64,000 nt of DNA. Source: Calditrichia bacterium (lineage in GTDB: Bacteria > Calditrichota > Calditrichia > RBG-13-44-9 > J075). Below are positions 1,647 through 59,735 of this stretch, piece by piece. Made by a program: the position numbers and the translations under genes. Location of the stretch: assembly GCA_050633245.1 (NCBI GenBank), contig JBOEGD010000012.1, positions 8,746 through 72,745 on the forward strand, written 5' to 3'. The notes under the pieces are model-generated. The model was given only the letters and a program-made list of their open reading frames with translations. It made no database searches and was not told the origin of the DNA. The first letter of the stretch is position 1. Every line of letters begins with the position of its first letter.

Positions 1647-2528
1647 ATGAAACATATAAAATCATTACTCTTTGCGATTGTTTTTGGTTGTCTCGCCACT
1701 TCAACAATCTTTGCTCAAGGATTAACATTTACATTTGCGAACGGTCAATTGACAGGTACCGGGCCTTATAAATACCGAGTATTCGTATTTATTAATGCCG
1801 ATACGCCCGGCACAAAACTCGGAGACACACAAGTATATATTAATTATAACAGCCTTGCTTTCGGAGATTCAATCGCCGCAAGAGGCAAGCTAAGCAGCGG
1901 AAGAACAACGTTACTTGGCGGCAACAGTGGCGGAACAGAGTTATACTCTATTCAAAACATAGTTGATCATGGTACAAACCGGGTTTGTATCACCGCAGCG
2001 TACGACTTCGAATCGAACACCTCTCTTGCCAATGAGGTACCTGAAACTCCTACTGGTTTATTCTTCATTGATATAGAAGTCGAAAATCGAGCATGGCTTT
2101 CCGGACTCAGTTTTGAAGGGTCTTTAATGCAGGGGCAACAATTTCTTGCAGACAACTTTCTTCAATACAGCTCTGTAATAGCGACCGATACAGACGACAC
2201 AGTTCTTGGAGTTGAAACCGTGCAGAACAACATAATTCCAAGCGAGTTTAAAATGGATCAGAATTATCCGAATCCGTTCAACCCGGAAACGACCGTTCGC
2301 TTCGATCTGCCTGCTTCACTTGGCGGCGAGAATGTAACATTGGTTGTCTACGATATGCTTGGTCGTAAGGTTCGCACTCTGCAGGATGGCCCTTTATCTG
2401 CCGGCACCTACGAGCTAAAGTGGGATGCAAAAACAGATACCGGTGCTGACCTGGCTTCCGGAACCTATCTGCTACGCCTTCAGGCAAAACGTCAGCAGCA
2501 AATCATCAAAATGCTGTTGATGAAGTAA
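1647..2528 (+). CDS. T9SS C-terminal-domain secreted protein (hypothetical)
   Basis: N-terminal signal peptide MKHIKSLLFAIVFGCLATSTIFAQG. C-terminal 'DQNYPNPFNPETTVRF...GTYLLRLQA...KMLLMK' matches the Por_Secre_tail (TIGR04183) signature. Confidence 0.8.
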   Translation: MKHIKSLLFAIVFGCLATSTIFAQGLTFTFANGQLTGTGPYKYRVFVFINADTPGTKLGDTQVYINYNSLAFGDSIAARGKLSSGRTTLLGGNSGGTELYSIQNIVDHGTNRVCITAAYDFESNTSLANEVPETPTGLFFIDIEVENRAWLSGLSFEGSLMQGQQFLADNFLQYSSVIATDTDDTVLGVETVQNNIIPSEFKMDQNYPNPFNPETTVRFDLPASLGGENVTLVVYDMLGRKVRTLQDGPLSAGTYELKWDAKTDTGADLASGTYLLRLQAKRQQQIIKMLLMK

Positions 2529-2603: not shown

Positions 2604-4670
2604 TTATTTCATTTCGGCAATCTGCTTTAACATATCTTTTGGATTTTGAAAGTCTGGATCCAACTCGATAGCCTTTTTATACGAAGCAATGGCCTTTTCT
2701 TTTTCTCCGGTTGCCAGATAAAACTCTCCAAGACTATCTCGAAGATTTGCCACCTCCGGATTCAATTCAACCGCCACACTCAGCAACTTAACCGCAGCAG
2801 CGGGCTGGCCAAGTCCACCAACACGATAGGCAAGGTTATTTAGGTTGTTCTGATTGGCAGGGCCTCGTGAATCGAGCTCAACTGACTTTCTCATATTCTT
2901 CGCGCCAGATTCTCTACTCCCCAGTAATACATCCACTATTCCATAAGCGCCAAGAGCTGTCGCCGAATTGGGATACTGCTCAGCTCCAAGTTTTGCCAGG
3001 GCATAGGCCTGCTTGGGGTTCACGACAAAAGCCTCCTGGACCATTTGCCATATCTGCCCTGAGTAATCCGGCACTAAGGCGGAGTTTCCATATTTATTTT
3101 TGTACTGGCTTTCCAGCATCTTCACATCAGAGTTTGCTTTTATCTCGAGACCACCGGAATTTTGCAAGGATTTCCAATTTGCATTCCATGCCTTCAACTT
3201 CGCGGCAACTGATGGTTTAAATTGATGGCTTGTCGGTACATCGGCTCTTCCTGCAACCGCAGCATGATAGGCAACAGCCATTTCCAGAGGCGCCTGGTCG
3301 TAGATCAAAGGTAATTTCTTCGGCGCCAACCGGGCAATTTGCATAGCCATATACGAACCTGCTGTTTGCCAGGCTCGCTTACCAATGGCATTAGACCCGG
3401 CGTTAACGAGGTCAGACGTCAAATTATCATTGTTCAAAAGTGCAAATGCCTCGGCCACCCGAGCTTCATTTGAGTTACTGGCTTTTTTCTGCCAATCGTA
3501 GTAGGCCACGCCTTGATCAAGGCATTTTCGAAGAGCTGAGTGTAGCTGTTTGTCTCCCTCATTAGAGAAGTAGGGATTGGGTAAATTTCGATTTAATCCC
3601 AACATTTCATAGGCCAAAAAGCGCGAATATTTGCGCGGTGATGAGTTTTCTAAATTACTGGCAACGGCGATCGTCAAATCTATTCCCGGAAAGTGTGCCA
3701 GGTCTGTTCGCGTCCCCTCCTGTGCACCACCATGCGCAACCAGATATCGCCCAGATAGCCCGTCAACGCCCCATCCCATCGCATAGTAGGTTATTCGTCC
3801 GTCTTTAGTTGACATTGAGGTCCACATCTCATTGCGGGTAGCTTTTTCCAGCACCTTGCCTGCGCTAAGGCCTTTTGCAAAACGCACCATATCTGTTGCA
3901 GTCGCACGCGTCCCGCCACCCCCGATTTTTAAACTTGTACTAACCGGAACCGAATTTTCGACCCGGTCGTTGCGAATTCGATAGCCCTGAACACGATCCG
4001 GAATAAGCTGATAAAGGTAGTCTACTGATGTATTGTTCATTTCCAACGGCTGCCAAACCTCACTTGTCATAAAATCCTGAAAACTCATACCTGAGGCACT
4101 TTCAATAATTGCCCACAACACGTTATAACCATAAGTTGTGTAGTTATACTCTGTTCCAGGTTCCGCCAGCAACTCCCAATCCTGAAATATCTGAAGGGCT
4201 TCTTCGGTAGTCATATCATTCACGGTGAGTGCTTCAGCAGAATAATTGCGATAGTGGCTAACGCCACCAAGATGTCCTAACAGCTGTCGGACTGTCAGTG
4301 GCCACTGTTTCCGCGGAAAGTTTGGGAGATAAGTTTGCACTTCAGCATCCAAATCGATCTTGCCCTGTTCTACCAATTCTAATATGCCCACAGCAGTCAT
4401 CGGCTTTGAAACAGAGGCCATACGATAAGAAGACTTTTCTGAAGCCGGGGTTTTATTTTCAAGATCAGAGAAACCATATCCCCGAGACCAGTGAACTTCT
4501 CCTTGCGAAAAGGCAACTGTTACCCCAACCAGTTGATTTTCTAAAATATCCGCTTGAATAAGCGCTTCCAACTTTGCTATAGCATTCTGATAGCGTGGAG
4601 GAATGTCAGTTGCCTCTTGTCCGATAGCAGGTATCCAAAAAAGCATAATTAGTATCAGGTGTTTGCGCAT
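2604..4670 (-). CDS. Serine hydrolase of the beta-lactamase/PBP-like family with a C-terminal TPR-repeat domain; secreted
   Basis: Signal peptide. S-x-x-K motif 'ASVSKPMTAVGI' in a class-C beta-lactamase-like N-terminal half. The C-terminal ~250 aa carries TPR-like repeats (…AYRVGGLGQPAAAVKLL…EKAIASYKKAIELDPDF). Confidence 0.8.
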   Translation of the reverse strand: MRKHLILIMLFWIPAIGQEATDIPPRYQNAIAKLEALIQADILENQLVGVTVAFSQGEVHWSRGYGFSDLENKTPASEKSSYRMASVSKPMTAVGILELVEQGKIDLDAEVQTYLPNFPRKQWPLTVRQLLGHLGGVSHYRNYSAEALTVNDMTTEEALQIFQDWELLAEPGTEYNYTTYGYNVLWAIIESASGMSFQDFMTSEVWQPLEMNNTSVDYLYQLIPDRVQGYRIRNDRVENSVPVSTSLKIGGGGTRATATDMVRFAKGLSAGKVLEKATRNEMWTSMSTKDGRITYYAMGWGVDGLSGRYLVAHGGAQEGTRTDLAHFPGIDLTIAVASNLENSSPRKYSRFLAYEMLGLNRNLPNPYFSNEGDKQLHSALRKCLDQGVAYYDWQKKASNSNEARVAEAFALLNNDNLTSDLVNAGSNAIGKRAWQTAGSYMAMQIARLAPKKLPLIYDQAPLEMAVAYHAAVAGRADVPTSHQFKPSVAAKLKAWNANWKSLQNSGGLEIKANSDVKMLESQYKNKYGNSALVPDYSGQIWQMVQEAFVVNPKQAYALAKLGAEQYPNSATALGAYGIVDVLLGSRESGAKNMRKSVELDSRGPANQNNLNNLAYRVGGLGQPAAAVKLLSVAVELNPEVANLRDSLGEFYLATGEKEKAIASYKKAIELDPDFQNPKDMLKQIAEMK

Positions 4671-28200: not shown

Positions 28201-29793
28201 TTGGATAACAAAAAAGCAAAAATACCAGAGCTGCTGCAAGATAAAGGCGGGCTGAAAAGCGGCGTTTCCAGGGAAGTCTCCCGGGAAACCGGTGCTCCGG
28301 AGGCCATGATTTATGGCGTCGGCAGTTTTTTTCATCTTCTTTCAAACCCCGACACTAAGGTACGAGTGTGCACCGGCCTCTCCTGCCAACTTGCCGGCGC
28401 AAATAAGATTCTTGAGGCCGCCAAAGCCGCAGGTCTTCCGGTGGAAGGCTGTTCCTGCCTGGCCGCCTGTGATCAACCTCCGGTGGTTTTGCGCGATCGC
28501 GACGTGATAACGCAGATTCAGTTATCGGATATCGAACAGACGGGCGGCGATTGGAAACAGTTAAAGCCTGAAATTGCTTCTGGTGGCTACGCATGGTCCG
28601 GGGCCGTAGGTCCTGACCGGGACGATTCCGAAAAGCAGGTTTTCAACCTGCTCGGGCAACTCGACTGGTCCGGGGCAGCTCTTAAAAAAGCAAGTGCCAT
28701 GGATCCGGATGACGTAATTCAGCTAGTGGAAGACTCCGGGCTGCAGGGACGCGGGGGAGCGGGATTTCCGGCCCATATCAAATGGAGGGCGGTGCGGGAG
28801 CAACAAGAGCCGCAGCGCTATCTGGTATTGAACGCAGATGAAGGTGAACCCGGCACCTTTAAGGACGGCGAGATTATGATGCGCCGTCCGGATCTGATAA
28901 TCGAGGGGCTGGCAATAGCCGCTCGAACCGTAGGTGCAACAGACATTTATCTCTACCTGCGTGGCGAATTTACCTTTCCCAAAATAGCGATGGCGACAGC
29001 ATTGGAAAAATTCAGTGAGCAGGGGTTACTCGATGATCTGAATTTTCACTTTCACGATGGACAGGGAGCGTATATTTGCGGTGAGGAAACCGCGCTTCTG
29101 GAAGCCCTCGAAGGTAAACGGGGAATGCCCCGGTTGAAGCCCCCTTTTCCGGTAGAAAACGGACTGTGGGGCAAACCAACCCTGATTCACAATGTTGAAA
29201 CGATTGCCTGTGTGCCGCCGGTTATGCTGCACGGAGGAGAATGGTTTAAAGACCTTGGACGCACCGAGCCCGGGACGAAGCTGTATTGCATCAGCGGACA
29301 TGTGCAAAATCCCGGAACCTACGAATTACCACTTGGCGTAACGCTGGACGAGCTGGTTGCAGAAGCCGGTGGGTACGTCGGTACGCTAAAAGCCTTTTGT
29401 CCCGGTGGTGCCAGCTCCGGGTTTCTGCCGGCCACGATGAGCAACCTGCCACTCGATTTTAAAGGCTTGGCCAAGGTTGGTTCCATGCTCGGTTCCGCCG
29501 GAATTATTGTTCTCAACAATACGGTTAATATGAAGTGGGCGGCCGGACACCAACTGCGCTTTTTTGAAGACGAGAGTTGTGGCCAATGTGCCCCCTGCCG
29601 GATCGGCACCCGTTACCTGCGAGAGGCAATAGACGCCTCTATTGAAGGAACGGAAAGCCCCGACACACCGAACCTTGAAGTTGCAGACGAGGTAGCATGG
29701 CAAATGAATGAAGGTTCTATTTGCGGATTGGGGCAAATTGCCGCTCTACCGCTTACCACCGCCAGGAAATACTTCCCCGAGGATTTTATATGA
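28201..29793 (+). CDS. NAD(H)-binding formate dehydrogenase beta subunit: fused NuoE-like [2Fe-2S] plus NuoF-like FMN/[4Fe-4S] (FdsB/HoxF type)
   Basis: NuoE-type cysteines 'CTGLSC…GCSCLAAC'. NuoF motifs 'GRGGAGFP' (FMN) and 'ESCGQCAPCRIGT' ([4Fe-4S]). TTG start with AAAGGTG SD. Its stop overlaps the next start (ATGA at 29790-29793). Confidence 0.85.
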   Translation: MDNKKAKIPELLQDKGGLKSGVSREVSRETGAPEAMIYGVGSFFHLLSNPDTKVRVCTGLSCQLAGANKILEAAKAAGLPVEGCSCLAACDQPPVVLRDRDVITQIQLSDIEQTGGDWKQLKPEIASGGYAWSGAVGPDRDDSEKQVFNLLGQLDWSGAALKKASAMDPDDVIQLVEDSGLQGRGGAGFPAHIKWRAVREQQEPQRYLVLNADEGEPGTFKDGEIMMRRPDLIIEGLAIAARTVGATDIYLYLRGEFTFPKIAMATALEKFSEQGLLDDLNFHFHDGQGAYICGEETALLEALEGKRGMPRLKPPFPVENGLWGKPTLIHNVETIACVPPVMLHGGEWFKDLGRTEPGTKLYCISGHVQNPGTYELPLGVTLDELVAEAGGYVGTLKAFCPGGASSGFLPATMSNLPLDFKGLAKVGSMLGSAGIIVLNNTVNMKWAAGHQLRFFEDESCGQCAPCRIGTRYLREAIDASIEGTESPDTPNLEVADEVAWQMNEGSICGLGQIAALPLTTARKYFPEDFI

Positions 29794-32606
29794 AAAAAGA
29801 AAATATGCAGATGATCATAAACGGTAAAGCGATCTCCTTTACCGAAGGCGAAACTATCCTGAGTATCGCTGACCGAAATGGCTGGAAAATCCCCACACTT
29901 TGCCACGATCCGCGTCTGGACCCCGCAGGAGCCTGCCGCACCTGTCTGGTTGAAGTAGAGGGATCACGCCGACTGGTTCCCTCTTGCGCTCAAAAAGCAA
30001 CAGATGGCATGGTGGTAAGCACCGAAAGCCAACGTATAGACAGACATCGCAAGTCGCTGCTTGCTCTGTATATGACCGATCACCCGCACGATCGTGCACT
30101 TGCCGAAATAGGATCTCCAAATCAGCTGCTCGATATGGTTGAACAATTTCAGGCCCCCACCAGCTGGGGACAGATGGAATCGCAGCGCGATCACCGCGAT
30201 CACGATCATAATCCCTATATCCATTTTAATGCCGAAACCTGCATTGCCTGCGCCCGCTGTGTGCGCTATTGCGAGGAGATTGAAGCAGTCTCTGCCATTA
30301 CTTTGGCCAACCGGGGATCCAAAACAACCATCTCTACCGTTGATGATCTGTCGCTGCTGGAAACAACTTGCGAAAAGTGCGGCGGATGTATTGATGTCTG
30401 TCCCACCGGAGCAATGACGGAGAAACTACCGTTAACCCGGAGCGCAAAGCCGGAGCGCGAGCTACAAAAGGTCCGCTCCACCTGCAATTTTTGCGGCGTG
30501 GGCTGTCAACTCGATTTGAATGTTGACCCGACGGCAAACAATGGTAATGGGCAGATCGTTAAAGTGTCCAGTCCTCCTCCCGGCACCACTACAAACGACG
30601 GGAATCTCTGCGTAAAAGGACGTTTTGCTTACGACTTTATTCATCATAAAGACCGCCTTACCCAACCACTGATTCGCAGAGAAGATGGAGAATTGCACCC
30701 TGCCACCTGGGACGAGGCCCTACAAACGGCCGCAGACGGATTGCAACAGGTTGCAAAACGTCACGGCCCGGACGCGCTGGCGTTTGTCAGCTCTTCACGC
30801 TGCACGGTAGAAGAAAATTATCTGGTGCAAAAGCTGTCCCGGGGAGTCTTCCGCACCAACAATGTGCATCAATGCGCCGCCACATGACACGCTCCTACTG
30901 TGGCCGGTCTGGTCAACACGTTTGGAGCAGGTGCAATGACGAATTCAATTGGTGAGATTCGCGATGCAGATTTTCTTTTTGTTATCGGAAGCAATACCAG
31001 TGAAGCACATCCGATTATCGCGATGGAAATGAAGCAGGCGGTACGACGTGGTGCGACTCTTGTCGTAGCAGACCCTCGCGCAATCTGGATGACCTCCATC
31101 GCGGAGAAGCATATGCAGTTAAAACCGGGCACCGATGTCTGGCTGTTGAATGCCATGGCACACGTTATTGTTGACGAAGATCTGATCGATCATCAATTTA
31201 TCAATCAACAAACCGAAAACTTCGAGTCGGTGAAACAGGCGGTGGCAGCCTATACACCAGAGAAGGCGGAAGCCATTACCGGCGTATCAGCGGAGGATAT
31301 TCGCTGGACTGCCCGGCGTTATGCGACGACGGAAAAAGCGGGAATTTACTATACCCTGGGAATAACCGAGCACTCACACGGAACAGATAATGTGTATGCA
31401 CTGGCCAATCTGGTACTGATGACCGGTCATTTAGGGAAACCCTCTTCAGGTATGAACCCTCTTCGCGGACAAAACAATGTACAGGGGGCAAATGATGCCG
31501 GCGCCAGTCCTATTTTCTACCCGGGATATCAGCGCGTAGATGATCCTGAAGTTCATGCAAAATACGAAACATCCTGGGGCGTTCCTCTCTCCACCACACC
31601 AGGGCTTAATCTAAATGAGATGATGAAAGTAGCCGGGGAACGTATTAAGGCGTTCTTTATCATGGGCGAGGACATCGTTATTTCGGAGCCCAACGTGCTT
31701 CGCTTGGAAGCAGCACTCAATAATGTTGAATTTCTGATCCAGCAGGAACCCTTCTTAAATGAGACCTCTCGCTTCGCGGACGTCATTTTCCCCGCCTCAG
31801 TCTTCGCAGAAAAGGACGGTGTGTTCACAAATTCGGAACGACGGGTTCAGCGGGTACGCAAAGCAGTTAACCCACCGGGTGAGGCTCGTGTCGACTGGCA
31901 GATCCTCGCTCAACTGGCGAACAGCTGTGGTGCCGGGTGGAATTATCAAAGCCCGGCGGAAGTCTATGCCGAGATGGTGAAAGATGCTCCCAAGTTTGCC
32001 GGTATCAGTCATGAGCGCCTTGAAGAAACGCATCGGAACCCCGGCAAGAGCGGAATCCAGTGGCCCTGTCCAACTCCCGATCATCCCGGAACTGAATATC
32101 TTCACAGTAGCGGAGTGCTACGTGGTAAAGGTTTATTCCAAGCAGTTGAGTATTCTCCATCGGCAGAGCTGCCGGATGAAGAATATGGCCTGGTCCTGTC
32201 CACCGGAAGAACCCTATACCACTATAATGCTGCCACACAAACGCGACGGGAGTCTGGGCTGCATATGAAGCAATCGGAAGCCTTTATCGAAATCCATCCG
32301 CGCGATGCGAGAAAGCGCGGCGTGCAGCACAAGGACTTGGTGGAAGTGAAAACCCGTCGTGGCAGCGTAAACTTGCGGGCACTTTATTCGCGGCAGGTGC
32401 GCCCTGGCTGCATCTGGATGCCCATGCACTTTGCAGAGGCTCGGGCAAATGTCCTCACGAATGATGTAGGCGATAAGGTTACCGGAACCGCAGAGTATAA
32501 GGTCTGCGCAGCGGAGGTTAGACCTATTGAACGGGCTAAAGAAGGCGATACGCTTTTCCCAGGCGCCTATTTTCATGAAAACGGACCAGGCAATGGCAGA
32601 ACATAA
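29790..32606 (+). CDS. fdhA: Formate dehydrogenase alpha subunit (NuoG-like 2Fe-2S/4Fe-4S N-terminus plus Mo/W-bisPGD catalytic domain). One continuous gene with in-frame UGA at 30885-30887 read as selenocysteine; the ORF track shows it as two ORFs
   Basis: 29721..30887 and 30900..32606 are in the same frame and are separated only by TGA. The protein reads …NNVHQCAAT-U-HAPTVAGLVNTFG…, matching the conserved FDH active-site 'C.R.(U/C)HGPSVAGL'. Upstream are 2Fe-2S 'CRTCLVEV', 4Fe-4S 'CIACARCVRYC' and 'CEKCGGCIDVCP', and the MopB Fe4S4 motif 'CNFCGVGCQL'. Confidence 0.8.
30888..30928 (+). promoter_or_regulatory. Candidate bacterial SECIS element directing Sec insertion at UGA 30885
   Basis: Hand-folded hairpin GCUCC-UAC-UGUG-GCC-[GGUCU]-GGU-CAA-CACG-UUU-GGAGC. 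The apical loop GGUCU (30906-30910) lies about 20 nt after the UGA, as in E. coli fdhF (…UUGCAGGUCUGCACC…). Not computationally folded. Confidence 0.45.
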
Positions 32607-33359: not shown

Positions 33360-34829
33360 ATGAATTTTGTATTCTCGGGCTGCATAACAGCGCTTTTTAC
33401 ATTGACATCGCTCGCGTTCTCTCAAGGCAGCGGTAGGATAGACCTGAACAGCCTCGAGAATTATGCTAATCAGTCCCGACCATCTTATATCTTCAAAGAC
33501 AACACACCGGCAAACAACCCGATTACCGATGCAGGAGCCACCCTCGGGAGGGTTTTGTTCTACGATAAAAGGCTATCGGTAAACAATTCCGTATCATGTG
33601 CCGGCTGCCATCATCAACGGCATGCTTTTGGCGACCCCAATCAGGTCAGCACCGGTGTAAACGGTATAACAGGCCGCCATTCCATGCGGCTCATCAATAC
33701 GCGCTTCGCTAGAGAATGGCGCTTCTTCTGGGATGAGCGTGCCGCCTCACTGGAACAACAATCTACCATGCCGCTTCAGGATCACATTGAAATGGGATTT
33801 AGCGGAACAATGGGTGACCCGGAGCTCGACTCACTGTTAAACAAAATGTCGACACTGGATTATTATTCTGTCCTCTTTGACTTCGTATATGGAGACCCGG
33901 GAATATCCGAGGAACGTATACAACTGGCAATGGCCCAGTTTATTCGCAGCATAGAATCCTTCGACTCACGCTTCGACGAAGGGCTGACGCAAACCGGAAA
34001 CATGCGCGTTAATTTTCCAAACTTCACTGAATCCGAGAATGATGGCAAGTTGCTGTTTTTGAACTTTCCGTTTTTTAATAATGACGGAGAGCGTGTTGCA
34101 GGCGGTGCAGGCTGCGCCTTTTGTCACAATCCGCCGGAGTTCAACATAAGAGCGGGTTCCGGAAATAACGGCTTTACACGCAAAATCGGCGGCGGCAAAG
34201 ATTTCAGTATTACCCGTTCCCCTACACTGCGCGATATCGCAGCTGCAAACGGGGACTTACACGGTGGACTTATGCATACGGGAGACAGGAATACCTTACA
34301 AGAAACGATCGATCATTATGATGATATCCTTATCGAGACAGGCAATTTTCGAATCGACCCGGTGTTGGTAGTTGGAGGCCGCGGCTGGCGCCTCAGGCTA
34401 ACACCGGGTGAGCGAATTGCCTTGGAAGATTTCATAAAAACACTGACTGGCTCGAACGTTTACACCGATCTTAAATGGTCGGATCCATTTGATGCAAACG
34501 GCGATTTGGAAATTACTCCACCTTCAACCACAGGCACTGAGCCACAGGCCCCTGCCGATGCCCTTACCTTTGAGCTTGCGCAAAACTATCCAAACCCATT
34601 CAATCCGTCCACTACTATTTCCTATCGTATCGGCCAGTCCAGCCGGGTAAACCTTAGCGTTTATAATATTCTGGGAATGGAAATCACCACACTGGTGAAT
34701 AAATTTCAGGAAGCTGGGAGGTATGATATTCCGTTTAACGCAGAGAATTTACCGGCAGGTGTATATTTTTATCGCCTGACAGCAGACAGACAGCCGGTTG
34801 AAACCCGTAAAATGCTGCTAAGTAAGTAG
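33360..34829 (+). CDS. Di-haem cytochrome c peroxidase (CCP/MauG family) with T9SS C-terminal domain – paralog 1
   Basis: 'LFYDKRLSVNNSVSCAGCHH' is the CCP N-terminal haem site and 'GCAFCHNPPEF' the second CxxCH. C-terminus 'LAQNYPNPFNPSTTISYRI…GVYFYRLTA…RKMLLSK'. Signal peptide present. Confidence 0.85.
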   Translation: MNFVFSGCITALFTLTSLAFSQGSGRIDLNSLENYANQSRPSYIFKDNTPANNPITDAGATLGRVLFYDKRLSVNNSVSCAGCHHQRHAFGDPNQVSTGVNGITGRHSMRLINTRFAREWRFFWDERAASLEQQSTMPLQDHIEMGFSGTMGDPELDSLLNKMSTLDYYSVLFDFVYGDPGISEERIQLAMAQFIRSIESFDSRFDEGLTQTGNMRVNFPNFTESENDGKLLFLNFPFFNNDGERVAGGAGCAFCHNPPEFNIRAGSGNNGFTRKIGGGKDFSITRSPTLRDIAAANGDLHGGLMHTGDRNTLQETIDHYDDILIETGNFRIDPVLVVGGRGWRLRLTPGERIALEDFIKTLTGSNVYTDLKWSDPFDANGDLEITPPSTTGTEPQAPADALTFELAQNYPNPFNPSTTISYRIGQSSRVNLSVYNILGMEITTLVNKFQEAGRYDIPFNAENLPAGVYFYRLTADRQPVETRKMLLSK

Positions 34830-34946: not shown

Positions 34947-36419
34947 TTGAATTTTGCACGCTTGAAGTATATCCCGACAGCATTAGTAGTGCTTACATCG
35001 CTCGCCTTCTCTCAAGGCAGCGGTACCATCGACCTGAACAGTCTCGAGAATTACGCTGATCAGCCCCGCCCATCCTATATTTTAAAAGACAACACTCCGG
35101 CAACCAATCCGCTTACCGATGCCGGAGCAACCCTCGGCAGAGTATTATTTTATGATAAGAGGCTCTCGGTAAACAATTCCGTTAGCTGTGCCAGTTGCCA
35201 CCATCAACAATTTGCTTTTGGTGATCCTGACCAGGTGAGCACAGGCGTAAATGGCATTACCGCCCGCCATTCAATGCGACTCATCAATACACGTTTTGCC
35301 GAAGAAAAAAAATTCTTTTGGGATGAACGTGCCGCTTCGCTGGAAGAACAAACATCGATGCCGCTTCAGGATCATATCGAGATGGGATTTAGCGGAACGA
35401 TGGGTGATCCAGAGCTCGATTCGCTGCTAAATAAAATGTCTGCACTGGAATACTATTCGATTCTCTTCAAATTTGTATATGGAGACGCAGCCATATCCGA
35501 GGCACGCATACAGCTGGCAATGGCTCAGTTTATTCGCAGTATAGAGTCTTTTGACTCACGCTTCGATGCCGGACTGACACAAACTGGCGACATAGACGCG
35601 TATTTCCCGAACTTCACTAAGGCTCAGAACTCCGGAAAACAGCTGTTTCTGGGAACACCGGTATTTAATAATGATGGCGAGCGTATTGCGGGAGGCGCCG
35701 GATGTGCATTATGCCATACTCCTCCGGAGTTCGACATTAAACCAGGCTCCGGGAATAACGGCTTTACTCGTAAACTTGGCGGTGGAAATGATTTTAATAT
35801 TACCCGTGCTCCCACCCTGCGCGACGTTGTCAAATTCAACGGCGCTTCGAACGGTGGACTCATGCATACGGGTGGCATGTTCAGCATAATCCATGTGATC
35901 GACCATTATGATAAGATTGAGATCGTGGAGGGCAACGAACAAATCGACTCGGTACTGGTGAGAAGCGGCAGGGGTTGGAACCTCCTGCTCTCTACTCAAG
36001 AGGTTAGAGATCTGTTCAGATTTATTGCAACACTGGGCGGTACAAATGTTTATTTCAACCCCAAGTGGTCCAATCCATTCGACGCAAACGGCGATTTGGA
36101 AGTGATTCCACCAACCACCACAGGCATTGAGCCTCAGGCTCCTGCTGATGCACTGACTTTTGAGCTGATGCAGAACTATCCCAACCCATTCAATCCATCG
36201 ACGACGATCTCCTACCGAGTCAGTCAATCCAGCCGGGTAAACCTAACCGTCTATAACATTTTGGGAAAGGCAATTGCCACACCGGTAAATGGATTTCAGG
36301 AAGCGGGGCGCTACAGCATTTCGTTCAACGCGGCTGATTTAACAGCCGGAATTTATTTTTATCGTTTAACTGCGGACGGCCAGCAGGTCGCAACCCGAAA
36401 AATGCTGCTGAGTAAGTAA
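34947..36419 (+). CDS. Di-haem cytochrome c peroxidase (CCP/MauG family) with T9SS C-terminal domain – paralog 2 (tandem duplicate)
   Basis: Same architecture ('SCASCHHQQFAFGD', 'GCALCHTPPEF', '…NYPNPFNPSTTISYRV…RKMLLSK'). Judged by eye at about 75-80% identity to paralog 1 at both DNA and protein level. Confidence 0.85.
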   Translation: MNFARLKYIPTALVVLTSLAFSQGSGTIDLNSLENYADQPRPSYILKDNTPATNPLTDAGATLGRVLFYDKRLSVNNSVSCASCHHQQFAFGDPDQVSTGVNGITARHSMRLINTRFAEEKKFFWDERAASLEEQTSMPLQDHIEMGFSGTMGDPELDSLLNKMSALEYYSILFKFVYGDAAISEARIQLAMAQFIRSIESFDSRFDAGLTQTGDIDAYFPNFTKAQNSGKQLFLGTPVFNNDGERIAGGAGCALCHTPPEFDIKPGSGNNGFTRKLGGGNDFNITRAPTLRDVVKFNGASNGGLMHTGGMFSIIHVIDHYDKIEIVEGNEQIDSVLVRSGRGWNLLLSTQEVRDLFRFIATLGGTNVYFNPKWSNPFDANGDLEVIPPTTTGIEPQAPADALTFELMQNYPNPFNPSTTISYRVSQSSRVNLTVYNILGKAIATPVNGFQEAGRYSISFNAADLTAGIYFYRLTADGQQVATRKMLLSK

Positions 36420-55622: not shown

Positions 55623-58600
55623 TTACTTAAGAAGCAGAACCCGTTGGGTTTGCTCATGTTGACTCGTGCTTAATCTTACAAAATACGTTCCGCTGGCAAC
55701 ACCGGAGGCGTTCCACTGATAGTTGTGCTCACCGGCATTTAGATTCTGATTCACCAGTGTTTGCACCAAACGACCATTAATATCGTAAACCTTCAGATTT
55801 ACAATCGTGCGTTCCGGAATACTAAAGCGGAAGGTGGTTGACGGATTAAACGGGTTCGGATAATTGGGAAAGAATGTAAATTGATTTGGTATATTGGTCT
55901 CATCTCCTATACCGGTCGGATTACCAATCGTGAATGAGCCGCTTGCCACAGCACTGCCTAAGAATGCGGCATCGACTGATTGTATGGACCAGACGTAACT
56001 TCCTTCTTCCAGGTTATCGATTAACCAGTTGACGGTAGCCCCAACATTTCCGGGTTCCGGCAGGCGATAGGCCGTGGATATCGGCGTACCGTTTTGAGAA
56101 ACCTTTAATTCATAGGTCAATGCCGCAGCGGGCGTATGGTCGTCATTGGCAGCATTCCATGTAAATACTACAGAGCTATCCGGTTGAACGTCAGCACTGA
56201 GACCATTAGGAGGTGTCGGTGCCAGGTTTTGCCCGGGGGAATCGTTGCGATAGAGATGCATCTGAGCTTCCACTAGCCCATTGCCACCGGGGACAAAATA
56301 CTGTCCGGCTATAAAGTAATCGAGATCCCCCTCACCATCAATATCTAACCAGGAGAAGGTTCCGCCGCGGGTTCCGGATGCCCTTGGGGCAGGCAGATCA
56401 GTCCCGGACTGACTGAAAACACCCCCATTGTTTTCATATATCCGTGCACGCCCTTCGATCTGCGAGCCTGAGTTATAAGTGCCTCCAAGCAGAATGTCGA
56501 CATCGCCATCATTATCGTAATCCGCCCATGTAACGGCATTTACATCAAACCAGCCTTCACAGGGAATACAGTTGATAATCTCGATTGGTGAGTAGACATC
56601 ATTATCGTTCTGATAGATTCGCAAGACGTTTTTATAGGTGCCGTCGGTATCATTAACATTTCCACCGATCAGAATATCCAAATCTCCGTCGGCATCATAG
56701 TCGCCCCAATTTGCAGCCCCATGTTCTATAGTCAGTGAGTCGATGATATCCTGAGGGGTAAAGAATCCGTTTCCATCATTGCGATAGCGGCGAATAAAAC
56801 CATCAAAGGTTAGCGGCTCTATATTAATTAGCAGTAAATCCAGATCCTGGTCGCCGTCATAATCTGCCCAAAAGCTCTGCGCGTGTGGAGCCGAGGTAAG
56901 TGCTGCATTCGTTTCCTCAGTAAAGATCCAGCCACCGCTGCCGTTTGGCCCATCATTGCGCATCAGCTTTGTTTCATGTAAAAAAGTGATGTTATTATAA
57001 ACCGACGGTAGCAAAAGATCGGCATCACCGTCGTTATCGTAATCTGCCCATGAAATAGAATTCAGATCAAACTCTGCCTGGCCGTTGTCTTCCCAATATC
57101 CGGGCAGGAGCGTATTCGTCGGCACCATACTACCGGCATCATTTCGATATAGAATTGTTTTTCCGTTCGTCCCAACCACCAAGTCCGGATCATTATCATT
57201 ATCGACATCTCCCCAGGCCATGTCGGATGCTCCGGATGTCAGGGTGTCGAAGGGGAGGGAGATGTATTCAAAGTCCCATTGGGTTTGTGTGGATGAACCG
57301 TTATTTTGCAATAGTAGTAGCCGATAATCAACGCTTTGGTTATAGACGACATAAAAACCGAGCACCGCAATATCCAGATCGCCATCCAGATCAAAATCAG
57401 CCGGTGCGGTGGTAATAACCCAGAAGTCCTCATCCTGCGGCGTTACAAAAACGGAATCAATGGGAGTAACTTCTGTAAATGCTCCAAAGGTACCTCCGGG
57501 ACCAGGCTGAGCAACTACAGCTCGGAGAGTCGTATTGGAGTCGCCGTCATCATCAACCACGGTTAATCTTACCAGATAGGTGTTTGCTGCGGCAAAGGTA
57601 TGCGACGGATTGCGCTCGGTTGAAGTCGTCCCGTCACCAAACTCCCAGAACCAGCTGATAATTGTTCCGTCCGGGTCATTACTGGTATCGGTAAAATCAA
57701 CGCTTAAACCAATGGTGTTAAACGTGAATGATGCTGCCGGTGGACGGTTTAACGGTGGAGGTGGTGGACCATTAAAATGTTCAATATATCCTTGAAATCC
57801 ACCTGTCCAGGCATTGCCTGCTGTATCTGCTACGATCGTGCTAAAATTGCCAAAGCCTTCTGAACCAATTTGTAGCACTGCCCAGTTTTGTCCACCGTTA
57901 GCGGAATAATAGGCTAGGTTATCCAGTGTACTGAGCCAGATTTCATTTGGACCGAGTAAGTAGATGTCACTGAATTTAACCGACGTGGTTTGGGTCGGGA
58001 GTTCTTCCCAGGTTAATCCGCCGTCATTGCTGCGGGCCGCATAGCCGCCCCAGCCCACCACATAGCCGGTTGCTTCATCATAAAAATCAATATCAGCAAC
58101 CTGAAACGGTGAGCCCGGCAGGGTTCCGGAAAACCAGTTCTGGCCGTTGTCATTCGTGATTTGCAATGGGCCACCGACGTTTACCGCCCAACCGTTTGGA
58201 CCTTCGAAGTCCACAGCAACATACAGTCCTCCAAAGCCCGGTATGCCGGTCCATGTAGCTCCACCGTCAATTGTTTGTAATAATGCTCCTCCAATAGGCC
58301 CACTTCCGATAACCCACCCTTCAGATGGGCTACTGAATTGTAGATCATAACCGGAAAAGCCGCTGGGTTTTGCAATCAGAGGCTGCCAGCTTGCACCACC
58401 ATCACCGCTGATGTGAACTTGTCCTGAGTTATCGATAATTGCTATTTCCTGAGCAGAAATAATGTCCACCGCTTCAATGTCTACGAAACCAAGACTTTGC
58501 TGCAGCTGCCATTTTCCATTTCCATCTGTCGTCAGGATAGTCCCTTCATCCCCTACAGCAATCATTCGTCCATCATCGAAACGAGCTATGTCGTTAATTG

Positions 58601-59735
58601 CCTGACCAACTCCGCTGGATATCTGAGACCATGAGTTACCGCCATCTGTTGATTTTATAGCAAAGCCGTGACCGTATGCAAAATAGCCGGTTGAGGATGT
58701 AGGGAAAACAGGTACTGCACTACCGAAAAATCCCGGCCTTGGTCCTGGTGAAGCGAAAGTTTGACTCCAGGTCGCACCACCATCAATAGACAAATACATG
58801 TTTCCATCTTTATCTGCTCCAACAACGTTTTGTGTATCAAGAACTGTTAGAGCCAATACGCCGGAAGGCATAACGGTGCCGATATCTGTCCAGGTTGCCC
58901 CACCATCTGCTGATCTGAAGACGCGGTTGTCCAAATTAGGAAATGCCCCTGTTCCCCAGGCAAGAACCGTTGTTTCAGAAAGCACGGTGAAGTTTGACTT
59001 TTCATTTGCCGAACCAACATCGATCCATGTTGAACCGCTATTCGTACTACGCATTATTCTATCATCCACAATTGCCAGCAGGGTATTAGCAGACAGGTAA
59101 GTGGCATCCTTTGCATCGCCGGATAGCAGTAGAGAAATTGTGCTGCCGCCGTCAGTTGTCCCGTAAAGGCCACTTGCCGAAACGCCCAGTGCGTTTTGAG
59201 CATCAAAGAAGTCAAACCGGAATATATCATTTGGAGAAGCAGACCAATTCAGACCTCCATCAATACTTACCTGTATGCCGAAGTTACCACTGGCGATTCC
59301 AAAGTCAGGCGTGTAAAACTCCATAAAATAGGTTGAGCCTAAAAATGGAATCTCTGTCCAGGTGGTGCCCCCGTCCAATGTCCGGTAATTATTATTTCCA
59401 TAGGTCCAGCCTCTTTGCGAATCGAGAAAGAATATACCGTTCAGCGGTGAATTCAGGTTGATCGGCACATTTCTCTGTACCCAGGTATCACCTCGGTCTG
59501 TTGATTCAAAGAGTGCACCATTGTTGTCAAAAGGGTCATCATCGGTGGCAAGAAATATTCTATTTTCAGTCGGTGCAGCCATACCGCCTACATCAAGATC
59601 TGTTGGAACAGGACTCTCTGTCGACCATTGCGTGAAACCTGTGGAGTGCAGCAAAAAACACATCAGGAAGGTTAATAAGAATGTTGTTGAGCGATATGTA
59701 TTTTGTATTACTAGTTTTGTTTTGAACGTTTTCAT
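55623..59735 (-). CDS. Giant (1370 aa) mosaic secreted protein: BNR/Ycf48-like propeller(s) plus PKD domain plus FG-GAP/VCBS repeats plus Ig/FN3-like region plus T9SS C-terminal domain
   Basis: Signal peptide. At least 12 'S.DGG.(T/S/N)W' motifs. PKD 'WFWEFGDGTTSTERNPSHTF…YLVRLTVVDDDGDS'. Seven calcium-binding FG-GAP-type loops (DFDLDGDLDIAV, DYDNDGDADLLL, DYDADGDLDILIG …). C-terminus 'FPNYPNPFNPSTTFRFSI…GTYFVRLST…RVLLLK'. Confidence 0.85.
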   Translation of the reverse strand: MKTFKTKLVIQNTYRSTTFLLTFLMCFLLHSTGFTQWSTESPVPTDLDVGGMAAPTENRIFLATDDDPFDNNGALFESTDRGDTWVQRNVPINLNSPLNGIFFLDSQRGWTYGNNNYRTLDGGTTWTEIPFLGSTYFMEFYTPDFGIASGNFGIQVSIDGGLNWSASPNDIFRFDFFDAQNALGVSASGLYGTTDGGSTISLLLSGDAKDATYLSANTLLAIVDDRIMRSTNSGSTWIDVGSANEKSNFTVLSETTVLAWGTGAFPNLDNRVFRSADGGATWTDIGTVMPSGVLALTVLDTQNVVGADKDGNMYLSIDGGATWSQTFASPGPRPGFFGSAVPVFPTSSTGYFAYGHGFAIKSTDGGNSWSQISSGVGQAINDIARFDDGRMIAVGDEGTILTTDGNGKWQLQQSLGFVDIEAVDIISAQEIAIIDNSGQVHISGDGGASWQPLIAKPSGFSGYDLQFSSPSEGWVIGSGPIGGALLQTIDGGATWTGIPGFGGLYVAVDFEGPNGWAVNVGGPLQITNDNGQNWFSGTLPGSPFQVADIDFYDEATGYVVGWGGYAARSNDGGLTWEELPTQTTSVKFSDIYLLGPNEIWLSTLDNLAYYSANGGQNWAVLQIGSEGFGNFSTIVADTAGNAWTGGFQGYIEHFNGPPPPPLNRPPAASFTFNTIGLSVDFTDTSNDPDGTIISWFWEFGDGTTSTERNPSHTFAAANTYLVRLTVVDDDGDSNTTLRAVVAQPGPGGTFGAFTEVTPIDSVFVTPQDEDFWVITTAPADFDLDGDLDIAVLGFYVVYNQSVDYRLLLLQNNGSSTQTQWDFEYISLPFDTLTSGASDMAWGDVDNDNDPDLVVGTNGKTILYRNDAGSMVPTNTLLPGYWEDNGQAEFDLNSISWADYDNDGDADLLLPSVYNNITFLHETKLMRNDGPNGSGGWIFTEETNAALTSAPHAQSFWADYDGDQDLDLLLINIEPLTFDGFIRRYRNDGNGFFTPQDIIDSLTIEHGAANWGDYDADGDLDILIGGNVNDTDGTYKNVLRIYQNDNDVYSPIEIINCIPCEGWFDVNAVTWADYDNDGDVDILLGGTYNSGSQIEGRARIYENNGGVFSQSGTDLPAPRASGTRGGTFSWLDIDGEGDLDYFIAGQYFVPGGNGLVEAQMHLYRNDSPGQNLAPTPPNGLSADVQPDSSVVFTWNAANDDHTPAAALTYELKVSQNGTPISTAYRLPEPGNVGATVNWLIDNLEEGSYVWSIQSVDAAFLGSAVASGSFTIGNPTGIGDETNIPNQFTFFPNYPNPFNPSTTFRFSIPERTIVNLKVYDINGRLVQTLVNQNLNAGEHNYQWNASGVASGTYFVRLSTSQHEQTQRVLLLK

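Follow-up and report, generated by a model that had tools for sequence, protein, structure and literature searches.

We describe a hairpin in a 64,000-nucleotide (nt) stretch of Calditrichia bacterium DNA (contig JBOEGD010000012.1; the whole of this stretch is called the window), which lies inside fdhA, the gene of a formate dehydrogenase alpha subunit, just downstream of an in-frame UGA codon. We are highly confident that this hairpin is a bacterial selenocysteine insertion sequence (SECIS) in the coding region of a selenocysteine (Sec)-containing formate dehydrogenase alpha subunit. A SECIS-like hairpin following a Sec-encoding UGA in fdhA had been proposed from the sequence alone, and this original prediction is supported by the predicted fold, by the conservation of the TGA in relatives and by an RNA constraint specific to Sec-type genes. 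The UGA is of the Sec type and occupies the catalytic position, the hairpin carries G23 and U24 at the canonical distance (counting the U of the UGA, 30885, as nt 1), and the selection acting on the RNA is tied to the UGA. The binding of SelB and the actual insertion of Sec are what we infer from the established E. coli and Moorella systems. The coding-region SECIS of fdhA is an ordinary element of textbook kind (PMC13188914), missed in the window by the gene callers and by the Rfam thresholds.

The reading frame of fdhA starts with the ATG at 29790, ends with the stop codon at 32604-32606 and is continuous except for a single in-frame TGA at 30885-30887 (codon 366). The part of the protein on the N-terminal side of this codon matches the Pfam domains Fer2_4, Fer4_Nqo3 and Molybdop_Fe4S4 together with the start of Molybdopterin (2Fe-2S and 4Fe-4S domains), and the C-terminal part matches the remainder of Molybdopterin and Molydop_binding. 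Scored separately against NCBIfam TIGR01591 (Fdh-alpha), the two parts obtained 144.7 bits and 618.9 bits respectively, and the summed scores of these halves exceed the whole-protein cut-off of the model, which is 666.25 bits. The closest solved structure is 6TG9_A (formate dehydrogenase alpha, 6TG9/6TGA), which was matched over the full length with an E-value of 4e-215, residues 7-911 of the fdhA product being aligned with residues 26-932 of the structure; at the level of sequence, this homology supports membership of the formate dehydrogenase alpha subunits. We take 6TG9 to be the NAD+-dependent FdsA of Rhodobacter capsulatus (FdsABGD).

Opposite the TGA-encoded residue, 6TG9_A has a Cys (chain position 386 by our count in the printed alignment), 9T1S_L, an F420-dependent formate dehydrogenase, has a non-standard residue (X), and 7QV7_S, the FdhF of the hydrogen-dependent CO2 reductase (HDCR), has a Cys. 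Furthermore, codon 366 corresponds to U140 of E. coli FdhF. The UGA is therefore in frame and aligned with Cys or Sec in the homologs, and the Cys homologs have TGY at this codon.

Regarding the conservation of the codon, a scan of one genome per species gave a set of 80 orthologous loci, and for the 79 of them whose match begins with the residue that follows the TGA in the window, the codon just before the match is TGA in every case. The peptide around it in the relatives is T-U-HAPTVAGLV-x-TFGAGAMTNSI, and both flanks are conserved as protein (71-83% identity). Judged by the record titles, these 79 loci span at least seven phyla, the titles naming Latescibacterota, KSB1, Planctomycetota, Acidobacteriota, Myxococcota/Deltaproteobacteria, Chloroflexota, Calditrichota, Eiseniibacteriota and a few metagenome-assembled genomes of Pseudomonadota. 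The public protein collections store fdhA as two proteins from one contig of 226,515 nt, P0121 with 365 aa and P0001 with 556 aa. In a protein search with the C-terminal part, the best 120 matches were all C-terminal fragments of around 550-600 aa; therefore, the gene callers have also split the orthologs at the same point. The split annotation is systematic across the Sec-type clade.

Strong comparative evidence comes from the synonymous sites. We profiled the codon entropy over 170 codons in the 80 sequences and found only two frozen places, namely the His codon after the UGA and the block GUGGCCGGUCUGGUC, which encodes V-A-G-L-V (30900-30914) and coincides with the apical stem-loop. The entropy at this block was 0.0-0.2 bits, versus 1.2-2.0 bits at the other four-fold or six-fold degenerate codons.

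As a control we used Cys-type genes. Their motif was taken from a protein search spanning the junction, with U replaced by C, which gave mostly short partial proteins. Metagenome contigs were then scanned with the degenerate pattern C-H-x-x-T-V-A-G-L-x-x-x-F-G-x-G-A-M-T-N, which leaves the synonymous sites open, and 117 distinct homologs were obtained. The codon entropies at V, A, G and L were 0.11, 0.11, 0.22 and 0.11 bits in the Sec-type genes and 1.98, 1.84, 1.89 and 2.28 bits in the Cys-type genes, and the 12-mer GTGGCCGGTCTG was present in 66 of the 70 distinct Sec-type sequences versus 5 of the 117 Cys-type ones. The predicted structures follow the same division: the mean energy of the 46-nt RNA was -18.0 kcal/mol in the Sec-type and -12.3 kcal/mol in the Cys-type genes (Mann-Whitney P = 3e-16), with a mean G+C content over the 46 nt of 0.67 and 0.63, respectively. 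The apical stem belonged to the minimum-energy fold in 62/70 Sec-type and 10/117 Cys-type genes, and the outer stem in 55/70 and 0/117. Purifying selection at the RNA level is thus restricted to the apical stem-loop and to the Sec-type genes, and the conservation at the RNA level on which the original prediction depended is present in the Sec orthologs and not in the Cys homologs.

The His codon is CAC in 70/70 distinct Sec orthologs, whereas the Cys homologs use CAC in 60 cases and CAT in 57. This freezing of nt 6 is not accounted for by the consensus hairpin; it may reflect a codon-context effect on termination versus Sec insertion, or else an extension of the lower stem. Two further observations concern the same region. 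The peptide at 30921-30935 is FGAGA in the Sec-type genes but FGSGA in nearly all Cys-type homologs. In the 3' strand GGNGC of the outer stem, the GC comes from the first Ala codon of FGAGA (30927-30929), and the choice of amino acid may thus have been influenced by the RNA structure. There is also an open reading frame (ORF) on the minus strand (30869-31156, 95 aa) that overlaps the hairpin region; the synonymous profile shows no constraint along it and therefore it is most likely spurious.

The sequence of positions 30885-30930 is UGACACGCUCCUACUGUGGCCGGUCUGGUCAACACGUUUGGAGCAG, and RNAfold predicts in it a hairpin at 30891-30928; the energy is -16.7 kcal/mol when nt 1-46 are folded and -15.2 kcal/mol with nt 7-44 alone. 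The outer and apical stems have base-pair probabilities of at least 0.97, which also holds in contexts of 150 nt and 250 nt, so that a stable hairpin within 40 nt of the UGA, as expected in the original prediction, is indeed predicted. In the apical part, GGCC (30902-30905) pairs with GGUC (30911-30914), and 3 further pairs lie past a 1-nt bulge. The fold that had been drawn by hand was only partly recovered: RNAfold returned its outer stem GCUCC/GGAGC and its three top pairs, but the middle stem UGUG/CACG (U15-G18 with C33-G36) is the less favourable of two nearly equal registers, at -14.2 kcal/mol, 2.5 kcal/mol costlier than that of the minimum-energy fold, and neither of the two is conserved. 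As a conserved feature we rejected the middle stem in all the registers considered (UGUG/CACG, that of the minimum-energy fold and that of SECIS_3), which are paired in only around 24-52% of the orthologs.

RNAalifold, run on an ungapped alignment of 60 columns (A2), retained two helices, the outer stem at columns 10-14/43-47 and an apical stem of 5 bp at columns 20-24/30-34. The consensus apical pairs are U17 with A or G at nt 31, G18-C30, G19-U29, C20-G28 and C21-G27. Nucleotide 31 is A or G in 80/80 sequences, giving U17-A or U17-G, and the 5' strand of the apical stem is invariant but for locus L020, with one mismatch, and locus L021 (3948-4007). In L021 the strands read GCG...CUC, which means that C21-G27 has become G-C, a compensated pair closing the loop. 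In 78 of the 80 sequences the loop is GGUCU, while L033 has GGACU and L079 has GGGCU (both at 3995-4054); therefore, U24 is not absolutely invariant in the clade.

In the outer stem, the central pair 30893/30926 (columns 12-45) joins the third positions of an Ala and a Gly codon. Among 71 distinct sequences this pair is UA in 17, GU in 11, CG in 7, GC in 7 and AU in 3, and 26 are unpaired. It shows the largest pairing excess of the 80 variable column pairs (45 observed versus 25 expected) and keeps the top rank, alone or shared, when the sequences are clustered at 5-15% divergence. An outer stem with modest covariation is plausible from these data. The compensatory changes that had been anticipated among the orthologs were thus found, one in the apical stem and a modest covariation at the centre of the outer stem. 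In E. coli the determinants lie in the upper stem-loop of 17 nt, and read-through drops by only around 25% when the lower region is unpaired (PMC8659212); the support in the orthologs, which is centred on the apical stem, agrees with this picture.

Coordinates of fdhA, its upstream neighbour and the elements of the hairpin (positions in the window)
Feature	Position	Strand	Remarks
fdhA, formate dehydrogenase alpha subunit, FdsA/NuoG-fusion type	29790..32606	+	938 codons + stop; Sec is codon 366
In-frame UGA read as selenocysteine (predicted)	30885..30887	+	conserved in relatives; aligns with catalytic Cys/Sec
His codon CAC directly 3' of the UGA	30888..30890	+	synonymous site constrained
Outer (lower) stem, 5' strand GCUCC, nt 7-11	30891..30895	+	paired in RNAfold and RNAalifold
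15-nt block GUGGCCGGUCUGGUC, codons V-A-G-L-V	30900..30914	+	synonymous-site constraint
Apical stem, 5' strand UGGCC, nt 17-21	30901..30905	+	RNAalifold consensus; near-invariant
Apical loop GGUCU, nt 22-26, with G23 and U24	30906..30910	+	same position as GGUCU of E. coli fdhF
Apical stem, 3' strand GGUCA, nt 27-31	30911..30915	+	RNAfold and RNAalifold
Outer (lower) stem, 3' strand GGAGC, nt 40-44	30924..30928	+	paired in RNAfold and RNAalifold
Sub-threshold match to Rfam RF01989 SECIS_3	30882..30940	+	34.8 bits; model positions 1-59 of 59
NuoE/NuoF-like fusion gene, putative NAD(P)-binding diaphorase partner	28201..29793	+	upstream of fdhA; Pfam and NCBIfam

Several results weigh against a SECIS. 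Taken as a single sequence, the hairpin folds within what is expected by chance, with z = -1.13 and -1.58 relative to dinucleotide shuffles, of which 24/200 and 16/200 (12% and 8%) fold at least as well. Therefore, we did not rely on the lone fold, and it is the comparative data alone that lift the element above chance. Nor are these data uniform. There is one compensatory event in the apical stem among 80 sequences, so the apical pairing rests mainly on invariance; four of the five outer-stem pairs carry no information, because the Ala-Pro and Gly-Ala codons fix them, and the remaining one, 30893/30926, is mismatched in 26 of the 71 sequences and loses its top rank when the clustering is done at 20% divergence, where 30 clusters are left. 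As this covariation fades with coarse clustering, we call it modest. The bulged U17 required in E. coli is not predicted, since U17 (30901) pairs instead. The match to SECIS_3 scores far under the gathering threshold of 63 bits, and RF01988 SECIS_2 (gathering threshold 70 bits) gives no match in 601 nt even at E <= 10. Finally, no selA, selB or selD was found among the window ORFs of at least 150 aa (the ORF of 1370 aa at 55623-59735 was left out), and no tRNA-Sec was found in the 64-kb window or flanking fdhA in 57 related loci. These last absences are uninformative because the sel genes need not be linked to fdhA.

We considered three other explanations, which even taken together seem unlikely to us. 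Each of them must explain a TGA at the metal-ligand codon in 79/79 loci and a freezing that is limited to 15 nt and to the Sec-type genes. If the TGA were a genuine stop, fdhA would have been split, be in decay or encode two separate proteins, and the hairpin would be a chance fold of a G+C-rich coding sequence. The two proteins of the public records and the shuffled sequences that fold nearly as well point in this direction, and UGA is an ordinary stop codon in this organism, because TGA ends the gene directly upstream of fdhA and, counting that gene, 5 of the 39 long ORFs of the window. However, the TGA stands at the exact codon across many phyla, with the protein conserved on both sides of it, and it is aligned with the catalytic Cys/Sec, so that truncation would lose the metal ligand and split the molybdopterin domain. 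Moreover, the synonymous sites are frozen only beside the TGA and only in the genes bearing it, and we give a genuine stop almost no credence.

The frozen sites might instead serve another purpose, such as a codon preference, a pause site, the antisense ORF or a DNA motif, with the Sec signal placed elsewhere. The apical stem is almost without covariation, so that the support for its pairing is indirect, and the minus-strand ORF of 95 aa does overlap the site. Nevertheless, the constrained 15 nt make up a perfect stem-loop whose loop is the canonical GGUCU, placed at the canonical distance, the constraint is missing in Cys homologs that have the same peptide and a similar G+C content, the change in the stem of L021 is compensatory, and the constraint does not run along the antisense ORF. 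Nor was a second SECIS-like element found nearby in the Rfam E-value scans. We regard such another purpose as very improbable. It could also be supposed that the hairpin promotes a read-through of the UGA that is independent of SelB, for example by a near-cognate Trp or Cys tRNA, giving a full-length protein without selenium. A UGA followed by C is a weak termination context in E. coli, which counts for this explanation, as does the Sec machinery not being seen in the 64-kb window. Nevertheless, the loop has the sequence and the position that SelB recognises in E. coli (PMC8659212), the codon is that of the metal-ligating Cys/Sec, the element resembles the Rfam family SECIS_3 and FdhA is the most widespread bacterial selenoprotein (PMC13188914). 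The probability of a read-through of this kind is, in our opinion, close to negligible.

Reading the hairpin as a SECIS, the mechanism would be as follows. With a ribosome at the UGA (30885-30887), the mRNA just downstream would be folded as a hairpin, whose apical stem of 5 bp (30901-30905/30911-30915) would present the GGUCU loop with G23 and U24 around 20 nt past the UGA, and whose lower stem (30891-30895/30924-30928) would stabilise the structure. The C-terminal winged-helix domains of SelB would bind the apical stem-loop at the ribosomal mRNA entrance. The tethered SelB-GTP-Sec-tRNA(Sec) would then outcompete release factor 2 (RF2) and the UGA would be decoded as selenocysteine, which would be the Mo/W-ligating residue 366 of the enzyme.

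The apical GUGGCCGGUCUGGUC is near-invariant even at those positions of the stem where the genetic code would readily allow compensation by synonymous changes. Tentatively, the near-invariance of this block across at least seven phyla, together with the frozen CAC, could mark a distinct SECIS subclass, captured at threshold by no Rfam family, although we consider this rather doubtful. If there is such a subclass, SelB could read the sequence of the stem and not its shape alone; alternatively, the Sec-type FdsA-like enzyme may spread horizontally as a unit that serves many different SelB proteins.

We can suggest a correction of the annotation, namely one selenoprotein of 938 residues in place of two ORFs, and the same would apply to the best 120 database matches and to the 79 loci. 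The organism would then depend on selenium for its formate/CO2 metabolism. The understanding of selenocysteine decoding is left unchanged by these results. Regarding the method, the comparison of synonymous sites between Sec-type and Cys-type genes offers a clean example of validating an RNA element within a coding sequence when folding energies and Rfam thresholds are not enough.

Directly upstream of fdhA there is a fusion gene (28201-29793) with the Pfam domains 2Fe-2S_thioredx, Complex1_51K, SLBB and NADH_4Fe-4S and a match to NCBIfam nuoF_fam (1.2e-123). Its TGA stop codon overlaps the ATG of fdhA in an ATGA junction, and the pair (28201-32606) resembles a soluble NAD(P)-linked formate dehydrogenase in a Sec-containing form. 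Elsewhere in the window, 33360-34829 and 34947-36419 are tandem paralogues of the di-haem cytochrome c peroxidase type (MauG/MbnH-like), each of them with a C-terminal sorting domain of the type IX secretion system (T9SS). Based on these sorting domains and on the nearest relatives, we judged the organism to be a member of the Fibrobacteres-Chlorobi-Bacteroidetes (FCB) group. In the gap between the convergent genes 1647-2528 (+) and 2604-4670 (-), weak sub-threshold Rfam matches cluster at 2536-2713, specifically CsrC with 23.8 bits, STnc320 with 30.5 bits and MicX with 23.2 bits. This pile-up is probably a terminator-like structure rather than a small RNA.

We compared the hairpin with the known elements, starting with the general model of a bacterial SECIS (bSECIS) from bSECISearch. 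As far as it is summarised in PMC13188914, this model asks for 3-9 nt in the apical loop and 4-16 bp in the upper stem, for a G at one or both of the first two positions of the loop (pattern G[G|U]), and for a minimum energy no higher than -7.5 kcal/mol. Relative to that summary, the window element has a loop of 5 nt (GGUCU), and its upper stem counts 4 bp if taken from the minimum-energy fold and 5 bp if taken from the RNAalifold consensus. The first two bases of the loop are GG and the third is U, and the GG start holds in 80/80 orthologs. The UGA is separated from the first base of the loop (30906) by 18 nt (30888-30905), and both energies given above lie well below the limit. Therefore, the element falls within the model as summarised there on all four counts, loop and stem, loop G, spacing and energy, although the model is deliberately loose, and agreement with it, while required of a SECIS, does not by itself establish one. 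The position of the loop G also agrees with the generalisation that hairpins bound by SelB near the mRNA entrance have a conserved G around 20 nt downstream of the UGA (PMC4605307).

Among the Rfam families, SECIS_3 was the only SECIS match and the best Rfam match in the window in E-value mode, with E = 4e-6 in 601 nt and 4.4e-4 in 64 kb; at gathering thresholds there were no Rfam matches over the whole 64-kb window. The covariance-model search thus supported the original prediction in part, with a full-length match to this SECIS family and a score under its threshold. Six orthologs reach 35-45 bits on SECIS_3. The genuine SECIS of E. coli fdhF obtains 87.1 bits on SECIS_2 and 35.8 bits on SECIS_3, and since this element of another family scores around the same on SECIS_3 as the window element, the match indicates kinship of kind and not membership. 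By the Rfam criterion, the hairpin belongs to neither SECIS_2 nor SECIS_3. The architecture and the lengths are shared with SECIS_3, the match begins 3 nt before the UGA and the consensus core is gGCcAGUCUgGCc, compared with GGCCGGUCUGGUC in the window. However, several pairs of the model are mismatched in the window element, at the middle and at the base. A literature search on the literal core CCGGUCUGG returned irrelevant matches only. The SECIS of Moorella thermoacetica in the SelB co-crystal presumably has the same GCCGGUCUGGC core, and this likeness forms no part of the evidence.

The likeness to E. coli fdhF had been pointed out in the original prediction, for the loop and its distance from the UGA as well as for the peptide HAPTVAGL, and both points hold. 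The E. coli K-12 record reads UGACACGGCCCAUCGGUUGCAGGUCUGCACC and encodes U-HGPSVAGL, so the two genes share the peptide pattern U-H-x-P-[ST]-V-A-G-L. In both, a coding-region hairpin stands right after the Sec-UGA of a formate dehydrogenase in a UGA-CAC context, GGUCU starts at nt 22, and G23 and U24 occupy identical positions, which in the window element are in the loop (30907 and 30908). Likewise, the lower stem begins a few nt past the UGA (PMC8659212). Nevertheless, 41/69 nt are identical, and an A-U pair closes a GGUC tetraloop in E. coli, whereas a C-G pair closes the GGUCU pentaloop of the window element. Furthermore, the minimal SECIS of E. coli fdhF combines G23/U24 in the apical loop with a U17 that bulges out of the upper stem on its 5' side (PMC8659212). 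U17 of the window element has A32 as its partner in the minimum-energy fold and A31 in the RNAalifold consensus, and any bulge would be A31, on the 3' side.

At the level of the enzyme, fdhA shares with the FdsA-type enzyme 6TG9/6TGA the full-length homology and the NuoG-like N-terminal Fe-S domains, and has a NuoE/NuoF-like gene upstream. It differs in that NuoE and NuoF are fused into one gene beside fdhA, and in the metal-ligand position, where 6TG9 has Cys in the motif CARVCHSPTGYGL and fdhA has the UGA in the motif CAATUHAPTVAGL. The closest full-length solved structures, 6TG9 and 9WXB, both carry Cys at the Sec position of fdhA and, to our knowledge, the characterised NAD-linked formate dehydrogenases of the FdsA type are Cys enzymes.

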